The notes under the pieces were generated by a model. That model saw only the letters and a list, made by a program, of their open reading frames with translations. It did not search any database and was not told the origin of the DNA. Made by a program: the position numbers and the translations under genes. Below, piece by piece: positions 1 to 7,092 of a stretch of 10,978 bases of DNA. Position 1 is the first letter of the stretch. Each line of letters begins with the position of its first letter. Location: the IMG/VR virus record IMGVR_UViG_2639762982_000007. One strand, given 5' to 3'. Source of the stretch: a virus (taxonomy: Duplodnaviria; Heunggongvirae; Uroviricota; Caudoviricetes).

Positions 1-232
1 GTTCACCGAATACGTGCGCAACAACCGTCTTCCGGAGCCTGTCATACGCGTAAAACAGCCAGCGCTGGCGCGATTTAGCCCCGACATAGCCCCACTGTTC
101 GTCCATTTCCGCGCAGACGATGACGTCACTGCCCGGCTGTATGCGCGAGGTTACCGACTGCGGCCTGAGTTTTTTAAGTGACGTAAAATCGTGTTGAGGC
201 CAACGCCCATAATGCGGGCAGTTGCCCAGCAT
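1..232 (-). CDS. insB: IS1 InsB transposase frame, partial (made as InsAB' by -1 frameshift); runs off window start
   Basis: Reverse-strand translation of 1..60 gives [19 protein letters not shown], an internal InsB segment. The upper boundary of about 232 is inferred from IS1 architecture, not precisely determined. Confidence 0.65.
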
Positions 233-426
233 CCAACGCCATTCATGGCCATATCAATGATTTTCTGGTGCGTACCGGGTTGAGAAGCGGTGTAAGTGAA
301 CTGCAGTTGCCATGTTTTACGGCAGTGAGAGCAGAGATAGCGCTGATGTCCGGCGATGCTTTTGCCGTTACGCACCACCCCGTCAGTAGCTGAACAGGAG
401 GGACAGCTGATAGAAACAGAAGCCAC
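151..426 (-). CDS. insA: IS1 InsA transposition regulator (91 aa)
   Basis: ORF-track protein [40 protein letters not shown]... matches IS1 InsA. The start lies 55 nt inside the IS1 end, as expected. Confidence 0.9.
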
Positions 427-481
427 TGGAGCACCTCAAAAACACCATCATACACTAAATCAGTAAGTTGGCAGCATCACC

Positions 482-723
482 TGAATAGAAGTGGAAAAAG
501 AAAATCATCTATTGCAGGTAATTTTACTAAATTAGGTGAGGCAATTACCTCGAGTGGGCAGAGGGTTTTTGGTGGTGATCTATCAAATGTAAATTTTTAC
601 GGAACAAATACGATTTTTGATGGAGATACAATATTTTTAATTAAATCACCTGATTCAGAGGAGTGGTCATCACAAAAAGCTTCCAAAGACGTAGAGGGCA
701 TCGTATTTGGAGGGAAAAAATGA
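482..723 (+). pseudogene. 3' fragment of an unknown gene truncated by the IS1 insertion (80 codons, no start codon)
   Basis: Frame beginning at 481 is open for 80 codons (LNRSGKRKSSIAGNFTKLGEAITSSGQRVFGGDLSNVNFYGTNTIFDGDTIFLIKSPDSEEWSSQKASKDVEGIVFGGKK) up to TGA at 721..723. It contains no ATG/GTG/TTG and abuts the IS1 end. So long an open frame is unlikely by chance in AT-rich DNA. Confidence 0.4.
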
Positions 724-1148
724 TTAACATTACTACTAAGGATGGCACTCAAGTCAGTGGTGAAGTAAGAGATCTAGTAATTCTTCTTGAAACTGATGGA
801 AAAACGGTGTCTGATTATTTGCAGCCAATCCCTCCCAAAAAAGATACACACTGGAGCATGATTTTCATTCCGGTAGCAATTTATATACTACTTAATCTTG
901 TATACATTATTGCTCACCCATTATTTCCTGAAAAATATCTAAAAACATCAACATCTATATTTCTATTCATTTCCTTCATATTAAGTGCAATAGTAGCATA
1001 TTTTGTTTTCCATAAGCATAAATCTGCCACTCTATCCATATGCAGCTTAGTGTTCTTAGTGTTAATTGTAGGTGCTAACGTAGGGTTTATCAGTTACAGC
1101 GACCTAACACAAAAAGCGACGCAAAAATTAGATAGTTTGTCTAAATAA
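720..1148 (+). CDS. small predicted membrane protein (about 142 aa, three hydrophobic segments), unknown function
   Basis: ATG at 720 is preceded by GGAGGG (709..714) and overlaps the upstream stop in an ATGA (720..723). The protein MINITTKDG... has a hydrophilic N-terminal ~45 aa followed by three hydrophobic stretches. The ORF-track start at 663 is a GTG without a ribosome-binding site. Region is AT-rich. Confidence 0.5.
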   Translation: MINITTKDGTQVSGEVRDLVILLETDGKTVSDYLQPIPPKKDTHWSMIFIPVAIYILLNLVYIIAHPLFPEKYLKTSTSIFLFISFILSAIVAYFVFHKHKSATLSICSLVFLVLIVGANVGFISYSDLTQKATQKLDSLSK

Positions 1149-1226
1149 TTATGTTGCCATGCGAAGTATGCATGGCTGCATGTCTGCCTTCCATTTAAAA
1201 TGGGCTAAGACCTATAACCCTAAATA

Positions 1227-1940
1227 TTATTCTTTATTATCTTCTTTACCACTTCGCACCATCCCGTTCGACTTGTTGCGGTTGTACTTCGCCTGAAGCA
1301 GCTGGATTGGCGTCGGGCCATGCTCGGCAGCCGGTGCTGCAATCGCCCGGCGCACAGGCGGTACTGGTTTGCCCTCGGTGACGCGCCTCTCCCACATGTC
1401 CAGCAGATCGCCGGCTTCACGCGCCAGCTCACCATGCGTTAACTGGCGCTCTGTGCTGCGGTGGCGCAGTTCGACGCAGATGTGGTACATGACAGGCTGT
1501 GACCACGGGAAATGCTCGCTGGAAGTGAATTCGAAGGAACGATTACGCCAATCCCAGTATTCGGTTATGACTTGGTCAACAGTGATACCTAACGCCCCGC
1601 CACTCTGCTTACACCACGCTACGAACTGGCCGGGCGACGGCAGGAATGGTCGATTCTGCCGACGGGCTACGCGCATTCCAGCGTTAACCTGTTCCATTGT
1701 GGTGATCCCGTTTTCCCGGAAAGCCAGAACCCACTGGCGGCGAATTTCGTTCAGTTCGTTCTGGTCACGGTTAGCCAGGCTCGCAGGGAAAGTTGCCAGC
1801 AACTGGCTGAATACACCGTTGATGATCTGCGCTACCTGCTGTACCTGCGGCTTTTCGTCGTACTGTTCCGGCATGTTGTTGGCGATCCGGCGCATCTGCT
1901 CACGGTCAAAGTTAATCATCTGTGCGGCGATGTTTTTCAT
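1227..1940 (-). CDS. P: lambda P-family replication protein (helicase loader), divergent C-terminal half
   Basis: From the internal Met, MKNIAAQMINFDREQMRRIANNMPEQYDEKPQVQQVAQIINGVFSQLLATFPASLANRDQNELNEIRRQW... matches the lambda P N-terminus from memory. ATG at 1940 overlaps the O stop (ATGA). The ORF-track start at 2045 is an upstream extension overlapping O. Confidence 0.85.
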   Translation of the reverse strand: MKNIAAQMINFDREQMRRIANNMPEQYDEKPQVQQVAQIINGVFSQLLATFPASLANRDQNELNEIRRQWVLAFRENGITTMEQVNAGMRVARRQNRPFLPSPGQFVAWCKQSGGALGITVDQVITEYWDWRNRSFEFTSSEHFPWSQPVMYHICVELRHRSTERQLTHGELAREAGDLLDMWERRVTEGKPVPPVRRAIAAPAAEHGPTPIQLLQAKYNRNKSNGMVRSGKEDNKE

Positions 1941-2866
1941 AGATCCACCCCGTAAATCCAGTCTGTGTTTGTCAGGTCGAGTTTTGGTTTGCCGGCTGTC
2001 ACGCCAGCCTGTTGCTTGTTTCGGTTGATTTCGAGCTGGGTCCACTTGTCGCGGAGTTTGGCCGGACTCAGCACGTTACCGGACCAGAAGTTGTCCTGGC
2101 ATGCCCAGCGGAACAGTACACACATGTCGCGGTGGTTACGTCCGTCACGTTCACGCATCAGGCGGATATCGTTAGCCCACCCTGCAAAATTCGGTTTTCT
2201 GGCTGATGGCGCGATGGTCTTCACCATGTCAAACATCCACTCTGCGGCGGTCAGGTCTTCTGCTGTCCCCCACTTGCTGCCGCTCTGAATTGCAGCATCC
2301 GGTTTCACCACAGGAAGGGCATTTTCTGGCTGGTCAGAGGATTCGCCATAATTCTCGGACGAAAAAGGTTTTATATTGTCTTTTGTTAGTTTGTCTTTTG
2401 TGTTTACCTGATTCGGGTAAACGCCTTTACCTGATTTGGGTAAACTTTTCTTACCTGATTCAGGTAAATTTACCTCTTTCAGGTAAACTTTATTTTTCTT
2501 ACCTGATTCGGGTAATGTTGACCATTCACTGACCACATTATTAATGCCGATATTCCGCCCGCTCTGAATAAGAATCCCACGCTTTACCAGAACGCTTTTT
2601 GCAGCAGAACACTTGTGCGGCAATATCCCGGTCAATTCGGAAAGTTGCTCGTTGCTCACCCAATCCAGTCTTTTATTAAAGCCATATGTTTTGCGCATGA
2701 CAGCCAGGAAGACCAGAAGCTGGTGCTGTGTTAATCCGGCCAGCATCACAGCTTCCAGCAACTCATTTGCAATGCGCGTATAACCATCGTCGAGATCTGC
2801 CACGCGCGGCTCCTTTTGTGCCACATCCGGCACTGGAAAATTGAATATCTCAGCAGTGTTTGCCAT
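1937..2866 (-). CDS. O: lambda O-family replication initiator (ori-binding)
   Basis: From Met at 2866, MANTAEIFNF...VADLDDGYTRIANELLEA...RKTYGFNK...ESYGESSDQPENALPVVKPDAAIQSG resembles lambda O. A strong GGGAGG site lies 4 nt upstream. Iterons sit inside the gene, as in lambda. The track start at 2956 is a likely upstream extension. Confidence 0.85.
   Translation of the reverse strand: MANTAEIFNFPVPDVAQKEPRVADLDDGYTRIANELLEAVMLAGLTQHQLLVFLAVMRKTYGFNKRLDWVSNEQLSELTGILPHKCSAAKSVLVKRGILIQSGRNIGINNVVSEWSTLPESGKKNKVYLKEVNLPESGKKSLPKSGKGVYPNQVNTKDKLTKDNIKPFSSENYGESSDQPENALPVVKPDAAIQSGSKWGTAEDLTAAEWMFDMVKTIAPSARKPNFAGWANDIRLMRERDGRNHRDMCVLFRWACQDNFWSGNVLSPAKLRDKWTQLEINRNKQQAGVTAGKPKLDLTNTDWIYGVDL
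2404..2515. repeat. replication origin iterons: five ~17-bp direct repeats TTACCTGATTCGGGTAA (each an inverted pair TTACC-N7-GGTAA) inside O
   Basis: Copies at 2404..2420, 2427..2443, 2451..2467, 2470..2486 (degenerate) and 2499..2515. An adjacent AT-rich stretch with two TTGTCTTTTGT copies lies at 2368..2400. Layout parallels ori-lambda within O. Confidence 0.8.
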
Positions 2867-2952
2867 AATTCCTCCCGCAATGAGTGTGTTACGATTTGCA
2901 CCTGAAAGTCGGTTCTGTTCGCGCAGACCGGCTTTCGCCATTTCCGAACCTG

Positions 2953-3498
2953 TCATATTGCCCCCAGCATGGTGGTGACCATCGCCATCAGTGGACCAGC
3001 CAAATCCGGGTCCACACGAAACATCGACACAATGCCTTCACTCATCTCCTTCAGTTTCTGGTGGCGTGGTGCGTTGAGAATGACAGCCTGTTTTGCCTCA
3101 CTGAGTTCCTTTTCCATTTCAGCCAGCCGAGCCATGAAGCTATCCTGCTCAACCAGGTGGCCGCGATATTCCAGCGGTAGTACCGCCAGAATTGCCGGGG
3201 TCAATTCACGCACGTTATTTCGGTATTTTTCAGAATCGAATTTGTTATCGAGGAAGCGGAACAGCTTCTGGCGTGCACGGCTGACATCATCAGGGAAATC
3301 GATGGTGCCGCCGCCCTGCTCCCGATACTCATTCACAATGAGTGCGGCAACGACATCCTGATTATCTACAGCCGACCAGGCGCGGACGGCATCACGGATT
3401 TTTTCGTGGCCTGGAGCTTGTTTTGTTTGAGAACGATTTATCACCGCAGTCGGGCTAAATCCGCTAGTCTGTTGGTATGTAAGTGGTTGCATAGTCAT
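2953..3498 (-). CDS. YdaT-family protein, likely CII-analogous early regulator
   Basis: Lies between the cro-like gene and O in the rightward early operon. Motifs NEYREQGGG and LTPAILAVLP resemble Rac prophage YdaT as I recall it. Start may be the second ATG at 3492, which has better ribosome-binding-site spacing. Confidence 0.65.
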   Translation of the reverse strand: MTMQPLTYQQTSGFSPTAVINRSQTKQAPGHEKIRDAVRAWSAVDNQDVVAALIVNEYREQGGGTIDFPDDVSRARQKLFRFLDNKFDSEKYRNNVRELTPAILAVLPLEYRGHLVEQDSFMARLAEMEKELSEAKQAVILNAPRHQKLKEMSEGIVSMFRVDPDLAGPLMAMVTTMLGAI

Positions 3499-3522
3499 TG
3501 CCTTATCAGTTAACGCCGCAGT

Positions 3523-3750
3523 TTAGGCGGCAGAATTACTCGCGTTAAACAATGGTGCGAGGTCGGGACGAATATCTGCTGGTTTAATCTTTCCACCAGT
3601 GGCTGAGACAATTTTCATTACATAGCGGGCATCAATTCCGCCACCGTGTAGCCAACGCCAAACTGTGGGTTGGGCTACACCGCATAGATCTGCCAGTCGT
3701 TTTTGACTACCTGTAATACTGATTGCGAGTTGAATGGTTTGATTTGTCAT
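3523..3750 (-). CDS. Cro-like helix-turn-helix repressor (YdaS/Cro family, about 75 aa)
   Basis: Divergent from the repressor gene. Helix-turn-helix signature QKRLADLCGVAQPTVWRW. ATG at 3750 has a GGA site 7 nt upstream; the track start at 3756 is TTG. Confidence 0.75.
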   Translation of the reverse strand: MTNQTIQLAISITGSQKRLADLCGVAQPTVWRWLHGGGIDARYVMKIVSATGGKIKPADIRPDLAPLFNASNSAA

Positions 3751-3860
3751 TATCAATTCCTATTGGTATTGCAATGAATGAATAATAGCAATGAGTATTA
3801 ATCCAAGCAATAGCAAAACGTGTTTTGACCATCAATACGCAAGCGTATAAATTAAAACTT
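3751..3860. promoter_or_regulatory. OR-like divergent operator/promoter region (PR leftward, PRM rightward)
   Basis: Intergenic between the divergent cro-like and cI genes. AATAGCAA(T) motif at 3784..3792 and 3809..3816 (25-bp spacing). Candidate PR on minus strand: -35 TTGCTT (plus 3805..3810), 17-bp spacer, -10 TATTAT (plus 3782..3787). Candidate PRM on plus strand: -35 TTGACC 3825..3830, -10 near 3846..3852. Confidence 0.55.
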
Positions 3861-4553
3861 ATGAAAAAAGAAACTCTTGCTGATCGCTTAAATCTAGCGA
3901 TGGAACAATCTGGAATGTCTCAAGGCGCTCTTGCAAAGGCGTCTGGCGTAGCTCAACCCACAATCTGGAGACTGACAAGCGGCAACGCGCGCGGCTCAAC
4001 AAAAATTGTTGAAATAGCTAATGCATTGGGTGTTCGAACAGAATGGCTCTCTTCAGGCATAGGCCCGATGAGAAATGACGGTCAACAATCAGGGAAGCCT
4101 GCTGTCAGCCATTCCAAATACTTCAAAATTGACGTTCTTGATATAGAAGTCAGTGCCGGGCCGGGTGTAATCAACCGTGAGTTTGTAGAAGTTCTACGCT
4201 CGGTTGAATACTCGTTTGACGATGCTCGTCACATGTTCGATGGCAGGAAGGCGGAAAATATCCGCATCATTAACGTGCGTGGTGACAGCATGTCAGGAAC
4301 GATCGAACCAGGTGATCTGCTGTTCGTTGATATCACGGTTAAATCTTTCGACGGTGATGGTATCTATGCGTTTCTGTATGACGACACCGCCCATGTAAAA
4401 CGCCTGCAAATGATGAAGGATAAGCTGCTGGTTATCTCTGATAACAAGAGCTACTCACCGTGGGACCCGATCGAGAAAGACGAGATGAACCGCGTGTTCA
4501 TCTTCGGGAAAGTCATCGGGAGCATGCCGCAGACATATAGAAAGCATGGGTAG
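3861..4553 (+). CDS. cI: CI-type prophage repressor: N-terminal helix-turn-helix plus C-terminal LexA-like S24 autopeptidase (230 aa)
   Basis: Helix-turn-helix MSQGALAKASGVAQPTIWRL. S24 motifs GDSM (catalytic Ser) and HVKRL (Lys). The track start at 3825 is TTG; the first ATG is 3861 with no ribosome-binding site, consistent with a leaderless PRM transcript as in lambda. Confidence 0.85.
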   Translation: MKKETLADRLNLAMEQSGMSQGALAKASGVAQPTIWRLTSGNARGSTKIVEIANALGVRTEWLSSGIGPMRNDGQQSGKPAVSHSKYFKIDVLDIEVSAGPGVINREFVEVLRSVEYSFDDARHMFDGRKAENIRIINVRGDSMSGTIEPGDLLFVDITVKSFDGDGIYAFLYDDTAHVKRLQMMKDKLLVISDNKSYSPWDPIEKDEMNRVFIFGKVIGSMPQTYRKHG

Positions 4554-4682
4554 AAATCAGAACAAAATTATGCACTTCGCTTTTCAGCTTACTGTAGTAA
4601 GGCAATAAATTAGGCTTGACGTTAGCTATCAGGTGCACAACAATAATTGTTGAATAATAGGTTTTTTTAACTAGGTGATAAC

Positions 4683-5822
4683 ATGGCAGCGGTTGAATTT
4701 CAATTGTCTAGGAAGATGATTGATTGGATAGCAAATTCTCAAGGAGTTTCTATCGAAACTCTTGCTGACCAAGTCATGCCCAAAAAGATTAATAAATTTC
4801 TTAACGGAGTGGTAAGTAAATCCGCAGCAGAAAAACTGGCAAAAATTGGAGGAATCCCTTTCGGTTTTTTATTTCTTGAAACGCCACCAACTCCAGCCAA
4901 ACCCAAGATCCCTGACTTAAGGCAAGCTATAAATAGCCGTGAGTTAGGAAAAGATTTTTTTGATGTTTACTATGATATAGAATATAAACTTGAGTGGTAC
5001 AAAGACTATTTAAGAGAAAATGGTAATGATGATCCACTCGATTTTATTGGTAAATTTAAATTTAATAGAAAATTAAATTATAAGGTTGTTGCTACAGACA
5101 TAGCAAACACAATACATTTTGATATACAAAAAGAGATAAAAAATGTCACTTTTGAGAGCTATTTTTCTAAAGTGGCAAAACTAATAGAAGACACTGGCGT
5201 ATTAGTTTTCAAGAATGGTGTTGTGGGTAATAATAATAAAAGAAAACTTGACACGCGAGAGTTTCGTGGTTTCTGTATATCTGATAGCGTTGCTCCGATC
5301 ATTTTTGTAAATAGCTCGGACGCGTTATCTGCGCAGGTATTTACATTATTTCATGAGGTGGCTCATCTTTGGCTTGGAGTCGATGGAGTCTCTGGGTGGG
5401 ACACAGAAAAAAACATAGAATCTTTTTGTAATAAAGTTGCTGCTGAAATCTTAATGCCTGATAATCTCTTCAAATCTTTCTGGCTTAATGCATCCAGCGA
5501 TAATAATTATTATCGAGTAAAAGAGGTTTCTAAGTTATTTAAGGTTAGTGATTTCGCTTGTGCAATCAAAGCGTTACAATTAGATTTGATAGAAAGAAAC
5601 ACTTTGGAGATAATTAAAGATCAAGCTTACAATAAGCCCAAAAAAGAATCCAATGGTGGTTCTTTCTTTAACACATTACCTGTTCGTAACAGTCCAAAAC
5701 TTACGAATATAATAATTTCCAAAGCAATGTCTCAACAATTACCATTAAGGGAAGCAGGCGTACTGCTAAATGTAAAAGCAGATACAGTTGTTGAATTTTA
5801 TAAAAAACGAGAATCTCTATGA
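4683..5822 (+). CDS. ImmA/IrrE-family (M78, COG2856-type) zinc metallopeptidase with helix-turn-helix-like N-terminal domain (379 aa)
   Basis: HEXXH at residues 224..228 (FTLFHEVAHLWLG) followed by the family-typical downstream motif NKVAAEILMPDNLF. N-terminal ~70 aa helical and helix-turn-helix-like. AGGTGA ribosome-binding site 4 nt upstream. Markedly AT-rich relative to neighbours. Confidence 0.8.
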   Translation: MAAVEFQLSRKMIDWIANSQGVSIETLADQVMPKKINKFLNGVVSKSAAEKLAKIGGIPFGFLFLETPPTPAKPKIPDLRQAINSRELGKDFFDVYYDIEYKLEWYKDYLRENGNDDPLDFIGKFKFNRKLNYKVVATDIANTIHFDIQKEIKNVTFESYFSKVAKLIEDTGVLVFKNGVVGNNNKRKLDTREFRGFCISDSVAPIIFVNSSDALSAQVFTLFHEVAHLWLGVDGVSGWDTEKNIESFCNKVAAEILMPDNLFKSFWLNASSDNNYYRVKEVSKLFKVSDFACAIKALQLDLIERNTLEIIKDQAYNKPKKESNGGSFFNTLPVRNSPKLTNIIISKAMSQQLPLREAGVLLNVKADTVVEFYKKRESL

Positions 5823-6331
5823 TTCATAATGGAAAATTCTTAATTGATAGTAATGTCTTCATAGAGGCAAAAAACTTTGCATATAACTTCAATTATTGCA
5901 AAATATTTTGGGATTTTCTTCTCGCTTTACACATTAATGGTCTGATTTATAGCATTAATGCTGTAAAAAAAGAACTATGTGCAAAAGATGATCCATTGTG
6001 TAAATGGATTAAAGAAGAGTTACCATCATCATTCTTCGAAGATGAGCATAGTTCAATAGAAAATTATGCAAAGTTAATAAATTGGTCAACTAAATTAGAT
6101 GTTACCGAAAAGGCAAAGTTTGATTTTGCAAGCCATGAAAAAGCAGATGCTTTTTTAATAGCCCATGCGATGACACATGGATATACTATTATTACCCATG
6201 AGAAACCATCCGGTGGCAAACCTAAAAAAAGAATAATGATCCCGGATGCTGCTGCTTCTCACGGCGTTAAGACATTAACACTATATGAATTTCTTCCAAG
6301 ATACGCTAGTCATAATTTTTCTTTGAAATAA
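5819..6331 (+). CDS. PIN-like putative nuclease (DUF4411-like), 170 aa; candidate effector/toxin
   Basis: N-terminus FLIDSNVFIEAKNFAYNF...FWDFL has the PIN-type first strand with conserved acidic residue and resembles DUF4411 proteins as I recall them. Start overlaps the upstream stop (ATGA 5819..5822). Same AT-rich composition as the upstream gene. Confidence 0.65.
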   Translation: MIHNGKFLIDSNVFIEAKNFAYNFNYCKIFWDFLLALHINGLIYSINAVKKELCAKDDPLCKWIKEELPSSFFEDEHSSIENYAKLINWSTKLDVTEKAKFDFASHEKADAFLIAHAMTHGYTIITHEKPSGGKPKKRIMIPDAAASHGVKTLTLYEFLPRYASHNFSLK

Positions 6332-6336
6332 AACGT

Positions 6337-6363
6337 CCCGGCCACCGTGCCGGGTTTTCTTTT
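6337..6363 (+). terminator. intrinsic terminator ending the cI-module transcription unit
   Basis: GC-only 6-bp stem CCCGGC (6337..6342) / GCCGGG (6349..6354) with 6-nt loop, followed by TTTTCTTTT (6355..6363). Lies 6 nt after the stop of the PIN-like gene. Confidence 0.7.
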
Positions 6364-6485
6364 GCCTCCCCTCATCACACACACCGTTCAAAAAACCACC
6401 ACAACCCCGCTTCAGTTATCGCTATGCGATGCAAGTCACAAAATTAATTCTTTTTGCTATCAAATATTTAATATCAAAACACATC

Positions 6486-6532
6486 TAGCAATAGCAATAA
6501 GTATTGATATCATCAATAGCAATAGCTATTAT
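6486..6532 (+). promoter_or_regulatory. OL/PL-like operator-promoter for the leftward early operon (gam-bet-exo)
   Basis: -35 TTGATA 6504..6509, 17-bp spacer, -10 TATTAT 6527..6532. AATAGCAAT at 6490..6498 and 6515..6523 (same 25-bp spacing as OR). Palindrome AATAGCTATT at 6521..6530. Confidence 0.5.
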
Positions 6533-6725
6533 CACCATGTCGCAACAACACAACGATACGGCAATCACCTGATTCACCGTTGCGATGACCGCTTAGATCC
6601 GCAGCTTGAATTTCAGCAGGCTCCGGGGAGTGCGAGGGGTGAAGCGGACGCGTGAACGTCGGTGTGACCAGCTGAAATCAACTCAACACTTCATACCTCA
6701 GTCGCTTCAACGAGGCGGCTTAGTT

Positions 6726-7016
6726 ATGACAACCGGCGGCCATCCACCGCCTGAATACGCGCAGAAGTCTTTATATGTTCAGCAGCCCAGCTTACGGGCA
6801 GGAGTTTTTATGGTTCATCAACATTACGGAACGCAGACCGTTAATCGCGGTGCGGTCATGCCAGGAATGCTGGTCAAACACAAAGATGGTACCTGGACTG
6901 CATCAGCTAATTTACGCGGACGGCTTTATCTGCATCGCGGCATCGAGCGCACTTATACCCGTGATTTGCTCGTAGAAGTTTTTCTCGACGGACGCGGTAA
7001 CGGCCTGAATCACTAA
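6726..7016 (+). CDS. hypothetical protein, first ORF of the PL operon (96 aa from first ATG)
   Basis: ATG at 6726 with GAGG 10 nt upstream. The ORF-track version (6606..7016) starts at TTG and adds an Arg-rich N-terminal extension. No recognisable family. Confidence 0.3.
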   Translation: MTTGGHPPPEYAQKSLYVQQPSLRAGVFMVHQHYGTQTVNRGAVMPGMLVKHKDGTWTASANLRGRLYLHRGIERTYTRDLLVEVFLDGRGNGLNH

Positions 7017-7092
7017 CCCCTCTTTCCTGTTTTCCTAATCAGCCTGGCATTTCGCGGGCGATATTTTCACAGCCATTTTCAGGAGTTCAGCC

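Follow-up and report, generated by a model that had tools for sequence, protein, structure and literature searches.

Predicted CI/Cro operators at OR and OL and a probably leaderless cI in the immunity region of a lambda-like Escherichia coli prophage

Introduction

The operators of phage lambda are spaced 24 bp apart, centre to centre, as against the 25 bp described below, and those of phage 434 are 14 bp long and read ACAA-N6-TTGT. In 434, as at the locus analyzed here, repressor and Cro are homologous helix-turn-helix (HTH) proteins that have a common recognition helix and therefore share operators. The HK022 repressor binds cooperatively to adjacent operators and loops OL to OR (Carlson and Little, 1993, as cited in PMC8053113), and HK022 has an OL3 that is set apart from OL2. 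In CP-933P, 5′ RACE combined with N-terminal sequencing showed that the repressor gene paaR2, located beside ydaS/ydaT, is leaderless, and four 18-bp palindromes were reported (PMC8630535). Finally, ST104 forms a repressor specificity type together with BTP1, SE1 and ST160, for which 92% identity serves as a rule of thumb (Villafane et al., 2008; PMC2629481). BTP1, the Salmonella ST313 prophage with reported high spontaneous induction, carries the same immunity type as the present locus, and in its lysogens cI-bstA is transcribed from a single start site (PMC7067206).

Here we describe the immunity region found in a viral record of 10,978 nucleotides, the whole of which is referred to as the window. 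Judged from its gene order and predicted sites, this lambda-like E. coli prophage has an immunity switch that is constructed like that of lambda. We consider it likely that the repeats discussed below are CI/Cro operators at OR and OL of a lambdoid switch in which a leaderless cI is transcribed from PRM. No description of operators for this immunity type was found in the literature searched, and a search for AATAGCAAT together with 'operator' returned unrelated matches only.

Repressor, Cro and Neighboring Genes

The cro and cI genes are divergent, and computational analysis places several dyad-symmetric operators on PR/PRM and a second set at PL.

3861..4553, plus strand: cI, 230 aa, 434-like HTH N-terminal domain and S24 autocleavage domain, no Shine-Dalgarno (SD) sequence
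3523..3750, minus strand: cro, 75 aa, YdaS-family HTH (Pfam YdaS_toxin, 9.6e-15), recognition helix GVAQPTVWRW

By its sequence, CI belongs to the HK022 CI family of HTH + LexA/S24 repressors. The N-terminal HTH matches Pfam HTH_3 (1.8e-6) and aligns with the DNA-binding domain of the 434 repressor over residues 6-66 (E = 2e-5), whereas the recognition-helix residues differ (QQSIEQ in 434, QPTIWR here). The C-terminal domain matches Pfam Peptidase_S24 (1.3e-18), and the cleavage site Ala99-Gly100 (VSAGPG), Ser143 (GDSM) and Lys180 (VKRL), as read from the translation, align with HK022 CI; RecA-stimulated autocleavage of CI may be expected by analogy. The two repressors are 40% identical overall, mostly in the C-terminal cooperativity/cleavage domain, and it is solely from this homology that we infer cooperative binding and OL-OR looping by CI.

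Cro and the N-terminal domain of CI are 40% identical across the HTH and have the recognition helix GVAQPT(I/V)WR in common. Unlike in lambda, the N-terminal domain of CI is 434-like, Cro is a YdaS-type HTH protein homologous to it rather than a protein of the lambda Cro fold, and CII is of the YdaT type (Pfam YdaT_toxin, 7.4e-30). The YdaS-type Cro and YdaT-type CII are found likewise in CP-933P, where the repressor PaaR2 is however only of about 15 kDa and is followed by a toxin-antitoxin pair, whereas the present repressor of 230 aa with its S24 domain is followed by a cargo of an M78 peptidase and a DUF4411 protein.

Promoters

The following promoter and terminator elements were predicted.

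3782..3787, minus strand: PR −10 TATTAT, read from the sequence, predicted start near 3775
3805..3810, minus strand: PR −35 TTGCTT, 17-bp spacer, 3/6 consensus match
3825..3853, plus strand: PRM, −35 TTGACC (3825-3830), 17-bp spacer, −10 TAAATT (3848-3853), from a promoter scan; predicted start 3860/3861
6337..6354, plus strand: terminator-like hairpin and T-run, from a terminator scan, directly past the DUF4411 stop codon
6504..6532, plus strand: PL, −35 TTGATA (6504-6509), 17-bp spacer, −10 TATTAT (6527-6532), from a promoter scan, 10/12 matches; predicted start near 6539

A preliminary description of this DNA had noted a 9-mer whose copies overlap promoter hexamers, which agrees with the PL (TTGATA-N17-TATTAT) and PRM (TTGACC-N17-TAAATT) hexamers called by the scan. 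PR, whose −35 agrees with the consensus at only 3/6 positions, was not called and was identified by manual reading; this −35 hexamer is TTGCTA or TTGTTA in relatives, while the PR −10 is invariant in six phages and identical to that of PL. PRM does not vary among the relatives from E. coli, Klebsiella and Salmonella. PL is directed towards kil, gam, bet and exo, and the hairpin upstream would terminate the cI-cargo operon ahead of OL. Rfam gave no matches at OR, OL or the PL leader, and the 272-nt PL leader folds no better than shuffles (z = −0.88).

Predicted Operator Sites at OR and OL

According to the preliminary description, the 9-mer occurs twice in the cro/cI intergenic region and twice near PL, 25 bp apart in both places, with a variable last base. 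Positions and spacing were reproduced: AATAGCAA has exactly four copies in the window, all on the plus strand (3784, 3809, 6490 and 6515) and 25 bp apart within each pair, as against a mean of 0.63 copies in shuffles, none of which reached four (0/200). Three of these copies (3784, 6490 and 6515) match the full 9-mer AATAGCAAT without mismatch, and the deviating copy at 3809 reads AATAGCAAA. A repeat finder independently returned a 17-nt direct repeat (6489-6505 and 6514-6530, 88% identical, 25 bp apart). The proposal that these repeats are tandem repressor operators at OR and OL is supported by their placement on promoters and by the comparative evidence, but the 9-mer by itself should not be equated with the operator, as it comprises one half-site and a single further base of a putative 18-bp pseudo-palindrome, YAATAsCwA-TwGsTATTR, which we predict to be the operator consensus for CI and Cro. 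The GCAAT core of the 9-mer is inverted in relatives. Moreover, OR contains three phased sites instead of the two proposed, OR3 having been overlooked, and probably a fourth.

3754..3771, minus strand: CAATACCAATAGGAATTG, candidate for a fourth site at OR; covers the cro SD sequence, corresponds to about +5..+22 of PR, 29 bp from OR1
3783..3800: OR1, TAATAGCAATGAGTATTA, spans the PR spacer and 5/6 bases of the PR −10; leave-one-out rank 4/10,961
3808..3825: OR2, CAATAGCAAAACGTGTTT, right half degenerate; leave-one-out rank 7
3833..3850: OR3, CAATACGCAAGCGTATAA, near-perfect palindrome within the PRM spacer, overlaps the PRM −10 by 3 bp
6445..6462, minus strand: TGATAGCAAAAAGAATTA, candidate OL3, weak and distal; its centre lies 44 bp from that of OL2
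6489..6506: OL2, CAATAGCAATAAGTATTG, overlaps the PL −35 by 3 bp; leave-one-out rank 3
6514..6531: OL1, CAATAGCAATAGCTATTA, spans the PL spacer and 5/6 bases of the −10; leave-one-out rank 3

The three OR sites start in a 25-bp register at 3783, 3808 and 3833. OR2 shares 3 bp with the PR −35 and meets the first base of the PRM −35; it is invariant in 6/6 aligned phages, OR1 is kept in ST104, BTP1 and Klebsiella phages, and OR3 is kept in all relatives. At OL two strong sites (6489 and 6514) are accompanied by a weak distal one (6445), and the placement of O1 and O2 is identical on PR and PL, OL1 lying on PL as OR1 does on PR.

Since an asymmetric 18-bp position weight matrix recovered OR3 poorly in leave-one-out tests (8.5 bits, with 17 positions outscoring it), a symmetric half-site model was used instead. 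In leave-one-out tests with this model every site was found within the top 9 of 10,961 positions (OR3 at rank 9), and none of the top nine fell outside OR and OL. The window contains seven matches of at least 14 bits, versus 0.12 in shuffled windows.

The site at 3754-3771 scores 16.8 bits; it was never part of the model, yet it ranks 3rd-5th of 10,961 under the symmetric model, above OR2 and OR3. In Klebsiella phages its half-sites are kept and its centre is different, and in Lambda_4C10 it shows a symmetric pair of changes (C..G to T..A). This is probably a fourth OR operator, and the four sites are then spaced 29/25/25 bp. Overlap with the cro ribosome-binding site (RBS) could alone account for its conservation.

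The site at 6445-6462 is probably an auxiliary OL3. It scores 14.3 bits in the asymmetric model and 9-10 bits in the symmetric one, shares the variant half-site AATTC with the site at 3754, and contains an element, wAATTCwTTTnnnTATCA, that is kept in every OL family, including those of Klebsiella and ST104 with diverged flanks. By eye, the OL3 region of the window also fits the IHF consensus WATCAANNNNTTR; an IHF site as the reason for the conservation of this region was dropped, as the consensus is missing in ST104 and in a second OL family.

Conservation of the sites was followed in 80 IMG/VR viral contigs (637 kb) that encode a 100% identical CI. Matches of at least 14 bits were found solely at −107, −78, −53 and −28 from the cI ATG and in the OL cluster, so that the sites travel exclusively with this cI; the match at −107 (site 3754) is present in nearly all of the 80 loci, and OL3 travels with OL1 and OL2 in these 80 loci. 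The distance from the OL cluster to cI ranges from 1351 to 2699 bp, depending on the cargo, and OL thus tracks cI across different cargo. Polymorphic positions are rarer in half-sites (8/70) than in spacers (23/85; Fisher p = 0.016). A megablast search of E. coli genomes with the 106-bp OL retrieved only 163 genomes and is unusable as a test of co-occurrence because of its 28-nt word requirement, for which reason the IMG/VR loci were used.

Comparison with Lambda, HK022, CP-933P and ST104/BTP1

The arrangement resembles that of lambda in its divergent cro/cI genes, three phased OR operators over PR and PRM, and O1 and O2 sites on both PR and PL. It further shares with lambda an OR2 that abuts the PRM −35, an OL about 2.7 kb from OR with cargo in the rexAB slot, a cI ATG 6-7 nt past the −10 without SD sequence, and a CI with an S24 autocleavage domain. 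It differs from lambda in operator sequence, which is unrelated, and in operator length (18 bp versus 17 bp in lambda), in a further OR site, probably a fourth one, on the cro RBS, in the weak distal OL3, in a PRM −35 that is near consensus, and in having no N gene after PL. HK022 likewise has a −10 followed by 7 nt and the cI ATG, yet it has its own recognition helix and 15-bp operators (TGAAC-N5-GTTCA), the centres of which are 24 and 33 bp apart, one lying over the cI ATG, as read from the HK022 sequence. As in CP-933P, cro and the repressor gene diverge from a short intergenic region in which 18-bp sites lie over PR/PRM (four in CP-933P, three and a probable fourth here), and a distant PL has hexamers resembling those of PR and operators of its own (three at OL in CP-933P) (PMC8630535). 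However, the CP-933P palindrome consensus, GTTTAGTAA, is unrelated to the present sites, and the latter are unequally spaced, with the fourth over the cro RBS.

In ST104/BTP1, OR1-OR3 and PRM are almost base-for-base identical to those of the present locus, and the OL pair is spaced by 25 bp. These phages differ in having P22-like virions and an N gene, no site over the cro RBS, a weaker site within cro and a flipped OL1; divergence of their cro DNA is beyond the reach of megablast, although the Cro protein is still of the YdaS family with the same helix.

Predicted Operators Change Together with the Recognition Helix

The helix AQPTIWR is found in ST104, BTP1, two Klebsiella phages and SaltyDalty, and the sites are retained in all of these, some OL sites being flipped, since a palindrome permits either orientation. 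In PhiR47_2 and Kp ST101phi6.1, where the same C-terminal domain is combined with the helix SQAAIQK, the sites at OR and near PL read AAAACCwTGGTTGT, while the operators of HK022 and Kp 2b are of the type TGAAC..GTTCA; none of these four has a site of at least 12 bits with the present operator model. The motif search across related prophages that the preliminary description had called for thus found the sites kept in same-helix relatives and replaced in the others: operators covary with the recognition helix, while the remaining repressor and the neighboring genes stay unchanged.

The HTH of ST104 CI is identical to that of the present CI, with seven differences in the N-terminal 70 residues and 86% identity overall. 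In its HTH and in its set of sites at OR and OL the locus agrees with the ST104/BTP1 immunity type; as 86% lies below the 92% rule of thumb, homoimmunity with ST104/BTP1 is offered as a prediction. The immunity specificity of HK022 is a different one (helix AQPTIWR here versus TPKAISK), with no HK022-type sites in the window and none of the present sites in HK022.

The cI Start Codon

We take ATG 3861 as the cI start codon, and the cI mRNA is probably leaderless. That this ATG lacks an RBS, as previously noted, is borne out by an anti-SD duplex of only −0.1 kcal/mol, versus −3.0 to −8.6 kcal/mol for 11 other genes of the window. The PRM −10 TAAATT ends 7 nt before the ATG, so that T3860 occupies the canonical seventh position and the ATG opens at the eighth. 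Among relatives these 7 nt are variable in sequence and constant in length, and in sister immunity types, too, 6-7 nt separate the −10 from the ATG; the experimentally leaderless paaR2 of CP-933P has a similarly placed −10. The earlier suggestion of a leaderless transcript is hence consistent with every sequence test run; what qualifies it is an upstream in-frame TTG (3825), separated from the ATG by 12 codons, without intervening stop, and used as the cI start in the BTP1 RefSeq annotation.

In all, three different cI starts are in annotation use. The predicted CI N-terminus is MKKET... from the ATG and (M)TINTQAYKLKLMKK... or (M/L)TINTQ... from the TTG. The expected leaderless start of BTP1 cI corresponds to about coordinate 379527 in D23580; no such coordinate was found in the supplementary data searched (PMC7067206, PMC5856525 and PMC6333337). 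SaltyDalty, with the same helix, has GGAGG 8 nt before the annotated start, and a leaderless start is therefore not universal among relatives.

Proposed Mechanism and Alternative Explanations

We propose that CI and Cro, having the same helix, would bind the 18-bp pseudo-palindromes at PR and PL. The promoter-proximal O1 would cover the spacer and the −10, and O2, 25 bp upstream, the edge of the −35; from this placement, a cooperative pair of CI dimers would shut both lytic promoters, the 25-bp spacing being typical of pairwise cooperativity. OR2, adjoining the PRM −35, occupies the position from which lambda CI activates and may do the same here, whereas OR3 on the PRM −10 would serve negative autoregulation by CI and allow Cro to turn cI off. 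The site over the cro RBS and the distal OL3 may act as auxiliary sites. Transcription from PRM would begin at the A of the cI ATG or 1 nt earlier, yielding a leaderless mRNA, and a CI octamer could join the OL1-OL2 pair to the OR1-OR2 pair across 2.7 kb, on the model of lambda and HK022. More tentatively, and with rather less than even confidence, the locus may differ from the three-operator lambda in a four-site OR, whose additional operator (+5..+22 of PR) lies on the cro RBS, and in an OL3 that is weak and distal; CI/Cro would then exert a second layer of control on cro, the looping geometry would be nearer to CP-933P/HK022, and the HTH and operators would be swapped as one cassette at the CI linker.

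The operators could be real and cI nevertheless not leaderless, being translated by leadered, SD-independent, A/U-rich initiation (from a start a few nt upstream, or by PRE-type read-through from beyond cro) or from TTG 3825. We regard this as unlikely, although if TATAAA (3846-3851) is taken as the −10, transcription would start near 3858 and leave a 3-nt leader, and the BTP1 RefSeq start and the GGAGG of SaltyDalty point the same way. The frame between TTG and ATG is also free of stops in all relatives, but it is of no use as a test because a stretch of 12 codons would be stop-free by chance in about half of all cases. Against a leader speaks the same −10-to-ATG geometry in HK022-type and PhiR47_2-type relatives. 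The TTG itself is no better provided with an SD sequence (+0.2 kcal/mol) and opens the only good −35 of a promoter reading into cI. Furthermore, in the alignment of relatives, the codons ahead of the ATG differ by radical, non-synonymous substitutions (LKL / FEI / LNI), whereas synonymous changes at third positions set in directly after it; similarity to the 434 repressor starts at residue 6-7, so that a protein begun at the ATG has an ordinary N-terminus; and PGAP chooses ATG 3861 in the 100% identical prophage of E. coli CV839-06.

A different objection concerns the number of operators: only the four sites with the 9-mer would be operators, and the other three would be look-alikes, OR3 being kept by the PRM −10, site 3754 by the cro RBS and site 6445 by an A/T-rich element ahead of PL. 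The low asymmetric score of OR3, the low symmetric score of site 6445 and the cro SD sequence within site 3754 would fit this idea. We think it quite improbable, given that OR3 lies exactly 25 bp past OR2 and matches the palindrome at 7/8 positions per arm, that site 3754 outranks OR2 and OR3 without being in the model, that only 0.85% of intergenic-composition shuffles yield even one match of at least 14 bits, and that the element at 6445 persists in OL families with unrelated flanks; CP-933P, moreover, has four OR palindromes and three OL operators, and HK022 a distal OL3. That the repeats are no CI/Cro operators at all, and represent chance A/T-rich promoter repeats or sites of another factor such as a host nucleoid or replication protein, appears extremely unlikely. 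The regions are indeed A/T-rich and the OL3 region has its IHF-like match, but this match is missing in ST104 and in a second OL family, no shuffle reached four copies, the sites occur solely beside this cI in 637 kb, and they switch with the recognition helix while the rest of the repressor and the neighboring genes are constant. CI/Cro operators at OR and OL, with a leaderless cI, thus remain the reading that we prefer.

Distribution and Significance

In concept, the switch adds nothing to the paradigm of lambda, HK022 and CP-933P. The operator map and the predicted promoters can be used to predict which prophages of E. coli, Salmonella and Klebsiella are homoimmune, and the predicted promoters and start could serve to correct inconsistent cI start annotations. 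The immunity type is common, being present in 719 of 5,426 complete E. coli genomes and in 509 IMG/VR contigs, and about 40% of complete E. coli genomes carry the C-terminal module of CI.

Repeated Motif and Predicted Operators

The window is a lambdoid Escherichia coli prophage, with the chromosome of strain CV839-06 being 100% identical to window 1-10658, the position at which identity stops. Its gene order is the reverse of that of lambda:

P, O, cII (YdaT family) and cro (YdaS family; 3523-3750), - strand
cI, 3861-4553, + strand
two-gene cargo after cI (ImmA/IrrE M78 peptidase and DUF4411 protein), + strand
terminator-like hairpin, 6337-6354
kil, gam, bet and exo, after the intergenic region beyond the hairpin

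CI carries HTH_3 and Peptidase_S24 domains, and its translation, read directly, contains the Ala99-Gly100 cleavage site, Ser143 and Lys180. The N-terminal domain can be aligned with that by which the 434 repressor binds DNA (E about 2e-5), and over its full length CI has 40% identity with HK022 CI, the C-terminal domain contributing most.

The four-copy motif noted in the preliminary description is real: the 8-mer AATAGCAA occurs at 3784, 3809, 6490 and 6515, on the + strand only and nowhere else in the window, and dinucleotide-preserving shuffles contain on average 0.63 copies, none of 200 reaching four. It extends to the 9-mer AATAGCAAT in three copies, the one at 3809 being AATAGCAAA. The reported 25-bp spacing also holds within both pairs, and a repeat finder independently returned a 17-nt direct repeat (6489-6505 / 6514-6530). 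The assignment of operators to OR (the cro/cI intergenic region) and OL (at PL) stands, but the 9-mer makes up only the left arm of a pseudo-palindrome of 18 bp, and at OR the earlier count had captured OR1 and OR2 but overlooked OR3. The half-site consensus, read from the outside to the centre, is YAATAsCwA, and from the sequence it is very probable that the operator assignment is right.

Predicted operators and further candidate sites.
OR1, 3783-3800, TAATAGCAATGAGTATTA
OR2, 3808-3825, CAATAGCAAAACGTGTTT
OR3, 3833-3850, CAATACGCAAGCGTATAA, near-perfect palindrome exactly 25 bp past OR2
OL2, 6489-6506, CAATAGCAATAAGTATTG
OL1, 6514-6531, CAATAGCAATAGCTATTA
Further candidate, 3754-3771, - strand, CAATACCAATAGGAATTG
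Further, weaker candidate (OL3), 6445-6462, - strand, TGATAGCAAAAAGAATTA

When each operator in turn was left out of a symmetric half-site model and 10,961 positions were scored, every operator ranked within the top nine, all of which lie in the OR/OL clusters. Seven matches of ≥14 bits were observed in the window, versus 0.12 in shuffled windows, and shuffles of intergenic composition gave one such match in 0.85% of trials. The main weakness for OR3 is its poor recovery by the asymmetric model (8.5 bits). The candidate at 3754-3771 never entered the model, yet among window positions it places third to fifth. It lies at about +5 to +22 of the predicted PR start, over the cro Shine-Dalgarno (SD) sequence. 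The asymmetric model gives 14.3 bits to the candidate at 6445-6462 and the symmetric one 9-10 bits; both candidates share the variant half-site AATTC. The OL3 candidate is overlapped by a 28-bp A/T-rich near-palindrome (6452-6479; TTTTGCTATCAAATATTTAATATCAAAA). In Klebsiella phages its right-hand part forms a strong operator with the sequence TAATAGCCATTGCTATCA, at a distance of 20 bp from OL2; only a TAATA half-site is left of it in the window.

The Same Repressor in Different Surroundings

A scan of IMG/VR gave 509 contigs with a relative of this CI, from which 80 loci, all with 100% identical CI, were kept (637 kb, scanned on both strands, cut-off ≥14 bits). This motif search in related prophages bears out the earlier proposal, since matches are confined to the OR and OL clusters. 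Upstream they lie at -107, -78, -53 and -28 from the cI ATG; the downstream cluster has the form x, x+44, x+69 and lies 1351 to 2699 bp from the ATG, depending on the cargo. In a second and a third OL family the flanks are unrelated, but a pair of sites at 25-bp spacing persists, with some sites flipped, which fits a palindromic protein site because a palindrome, and not a directional motif, tolerates flips. Variable positions, counted over haplotypes, are rarer in half-sites (8/70) than in spacers (23/85; Fisher p=0.016) or operator centres (15/56; p=0.036). Among 36 distinct OL sequences (loci L008-L087 of the IMG/VR set), two loci have 8-9 consecutive C residues in the stretch from OL2 to OL1, which alters the spacing of these sites from 25 bp to 28-29 bp. 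The cause is either faulty assembly or natural variation in spacing, and the latter would offer a test of the phase dependence of cooperativity.

Promoters and Proposed Switch

A promoter scan returned PL (TTGATA-N17-TATTAT, 6504-6532) and PRM (TTGACC-N17-TAAATT, 3825-3853), and a manual reading of the - strand gave PR (TTGCTT-N17-TATTAT; 3810-3805 / 3787-3782), the -35 of which matches at only 3/6 positions. As had been claimed, the motif overlaps the -10 and -35 elements: at PR and PL alike, O1 extends to the fifth -10 base and O2 3 bp into the -35. At PRM, OR2 just reaches base 1 of the -35, and OR3 spans the spacer plus 3 bp of the -10. This layout is lambda logic, and the proposed switch works like those of lambda and HK022. 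Lambda operators are 24 bp apart from centre to centre; the distance is 25 bp here, versus 24 bp for the cro-proximal pair of HK022 sites as read from the HK022 sequence. CI on O1 and O2 would repress the lytic promoters, OR2 would be the site of its activating contact with RNA polymerase, OR3 would mediate cI autorepression, and Cro on OR3 would shut cI off.

A distance of 2.7 kb separates OL1/OL2 from OR1/OR2. The CI of HK022 shows cooperative binding to adjacent sites and forms OL-OR loops in vivo, the HK022 OL3 being set apart from OL2 and the DNase patterns loop-like (PMC8053113). Cooperativity and OL-OR looping are plausible for the window's CI too, given the C-terminal domain it has in common with HK022 CI.

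Between PL and kil (6810-7016) there is no N-like ORF, and an untranslated leader of ~270 nt (6533-6810) had no match in Rfam and folded, over its whole length, no better than shuffles (z=-0.88). Early antitermination in this phage may be N-independent or put-like, as in HK022.

Start of cI

The suggestion that cI lacks a ribosome-binding site was upheld, the 20 nt before ATG 3861 pairing with the anti-SD at -0.1 kcal/mol, versus -3.0 to -8.6 kcal/mol for eleven other window genes; the same pairing test found no SD for the alternative starts TTG 3825 and ATG 3900. The candidate -10 just before the ATG was likewise found: the PRM TAAATT ends 7 nt upstream, so that transcription is predicted to start at T3860 or A3861. 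This 7-nt gap is variable in sequence and fixed in length when relatives from E. coli, Klebsiella and Salmonella are compared, and the PRM -35, OR3 and -10 are invariant. Lambda has TAGATT + 6 nt + ATG, HK022 has TATAGT + 7 nt + ATG, and sister immunity types have TACATT or TAAATT, each + 6 nt + ATG. On these sequence features the cI mRNA appears rather likely to be leaderless.

The alternative is a short leader, or translation from the upstream TTG. The frame from TTG to ATG is open in every relative and the BTP1 annotation begins cI at this TTG; TATAAA as -10 would give a 3-nt leader, and in SaltyDalty GGAGG precedes the start. Further support for a leaderless mRNA comes from the third-position synonymous changes, which start directly past the ATG, whereas the "codons" before it change radically. 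In the same direction, the repressor mRNA of the related CP-933P YdaS/YdaT region is leaderless, as proven by 5' RACE and N-terminal sequencing (PMC8630535), and in BTP1 lysogens a single start site serves cI and the downstream gene (PMC7067206). ATG 3861 is the best supported cI start. Three starts for this gene are in public use (window 3825, 3861 and 3900, with equivalents in the comparison loci L088, L002 and L001): the upstream TTG (BTP1 RefSeq), the ATG (PGAP, Lambda_4C10) and Met14 (PhiR68_2).

Covariation With the Recognition Helix and Known Systems

Recognition helices and operators in related phages.
ST104 and BTP1 (CI 86% identical), two Klebsiella phages (82%), SaltyDalty (77%): AQPTIWR; same OR/OL sites
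PhiR47_2 and Klebsiella ST101-KPC2phi6.1 (same C-terminal domain): SQAAIQK; AAAACCwTGGTTGT at OR and near PL
HK022 and Klebsiella 2b: TPKAxSK; TGAAC..GTTCA

OR1-OR3 and PRM are almost invariant among the AQPTIWR phages, and the window's model found no site of ≥12 bits in the SQAAIQK and TPKAxSK loci. Of 5,426 complete E. coli genomes, 2,209 carry the C-terminal half of cI (4102-4553; 90-99% DNA identity) and only 719 the full OR and cI, so that the DNA-binding domain and operators move as a cassette; the break between shared and exchanged parts is the interdomain linker. Over the HTH, the window's Cro and CI have 40% identity, and both contain GVAQPT(I/V)WR (GVKQPTVWRW in ST104 Cro); by these sequences they should read the same operators, as in 434. 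Salmonella relatives are without the cro-RBS site and instead have an operator-like site of 13-14 bits in the first cro codons, 63 bp from OR1 (3860-3877 in BTP1, L088; 4940-4957 in ST104, L005).

The window's immunity is of the "ST104" specificity type of Villafane et al. (PMC2629481), for the operators of which a literature search found no description. CP-933P shares with the window the Cro type, the CII type and, if the candidate at 3754-3771 is counted, a four-palindrome OR; the CP-933P region has four palindromes of 18 bp and, at a distance, a PL served by operators of its own (PMC8630535). Homoimmunity with HK022 was rejected, as operators and helix both differ, and a PaaR2-type region because the window's repressor carries an S24 domain. 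This is an uncharacterised example of a well-known kind of switch, and the operator map, of use for annotation and immunity prediction, is not surprising.

Flanking Elements and the cI-OL Slot

Window 1 to ~426 is IS1 (an IS1A transposase is annotated in the identical CV839-06 region), owing to which a whole-window search matched >10,000 E. coli records. A full-length IS10 RNA-OUT at the right end (10703-10772, - strand; 98.8 bits, E=3.5e-20) indicates an IS10 end inserted in this prophage copy near the excisionase/integrase side.

The cI-OL slot (4683-6331) occupies the rexAB position of lambda and encodes an ImmA/IrrE-type M78 metallopeptidase of 379 aa, with weak PADLOC matches to CapP and RmrA, and a DUF4411 protein of 170 aa, followed by the hairpin. 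The slot is probably a hotspot for defence or accessory genes: elsewhere it holds BstA (BTP1), GevT/GevA as annotated (PhiR47_2) or RexAB (a Klebsiella phage), and the IMG/VR loci show it in at least 20 different lengths.
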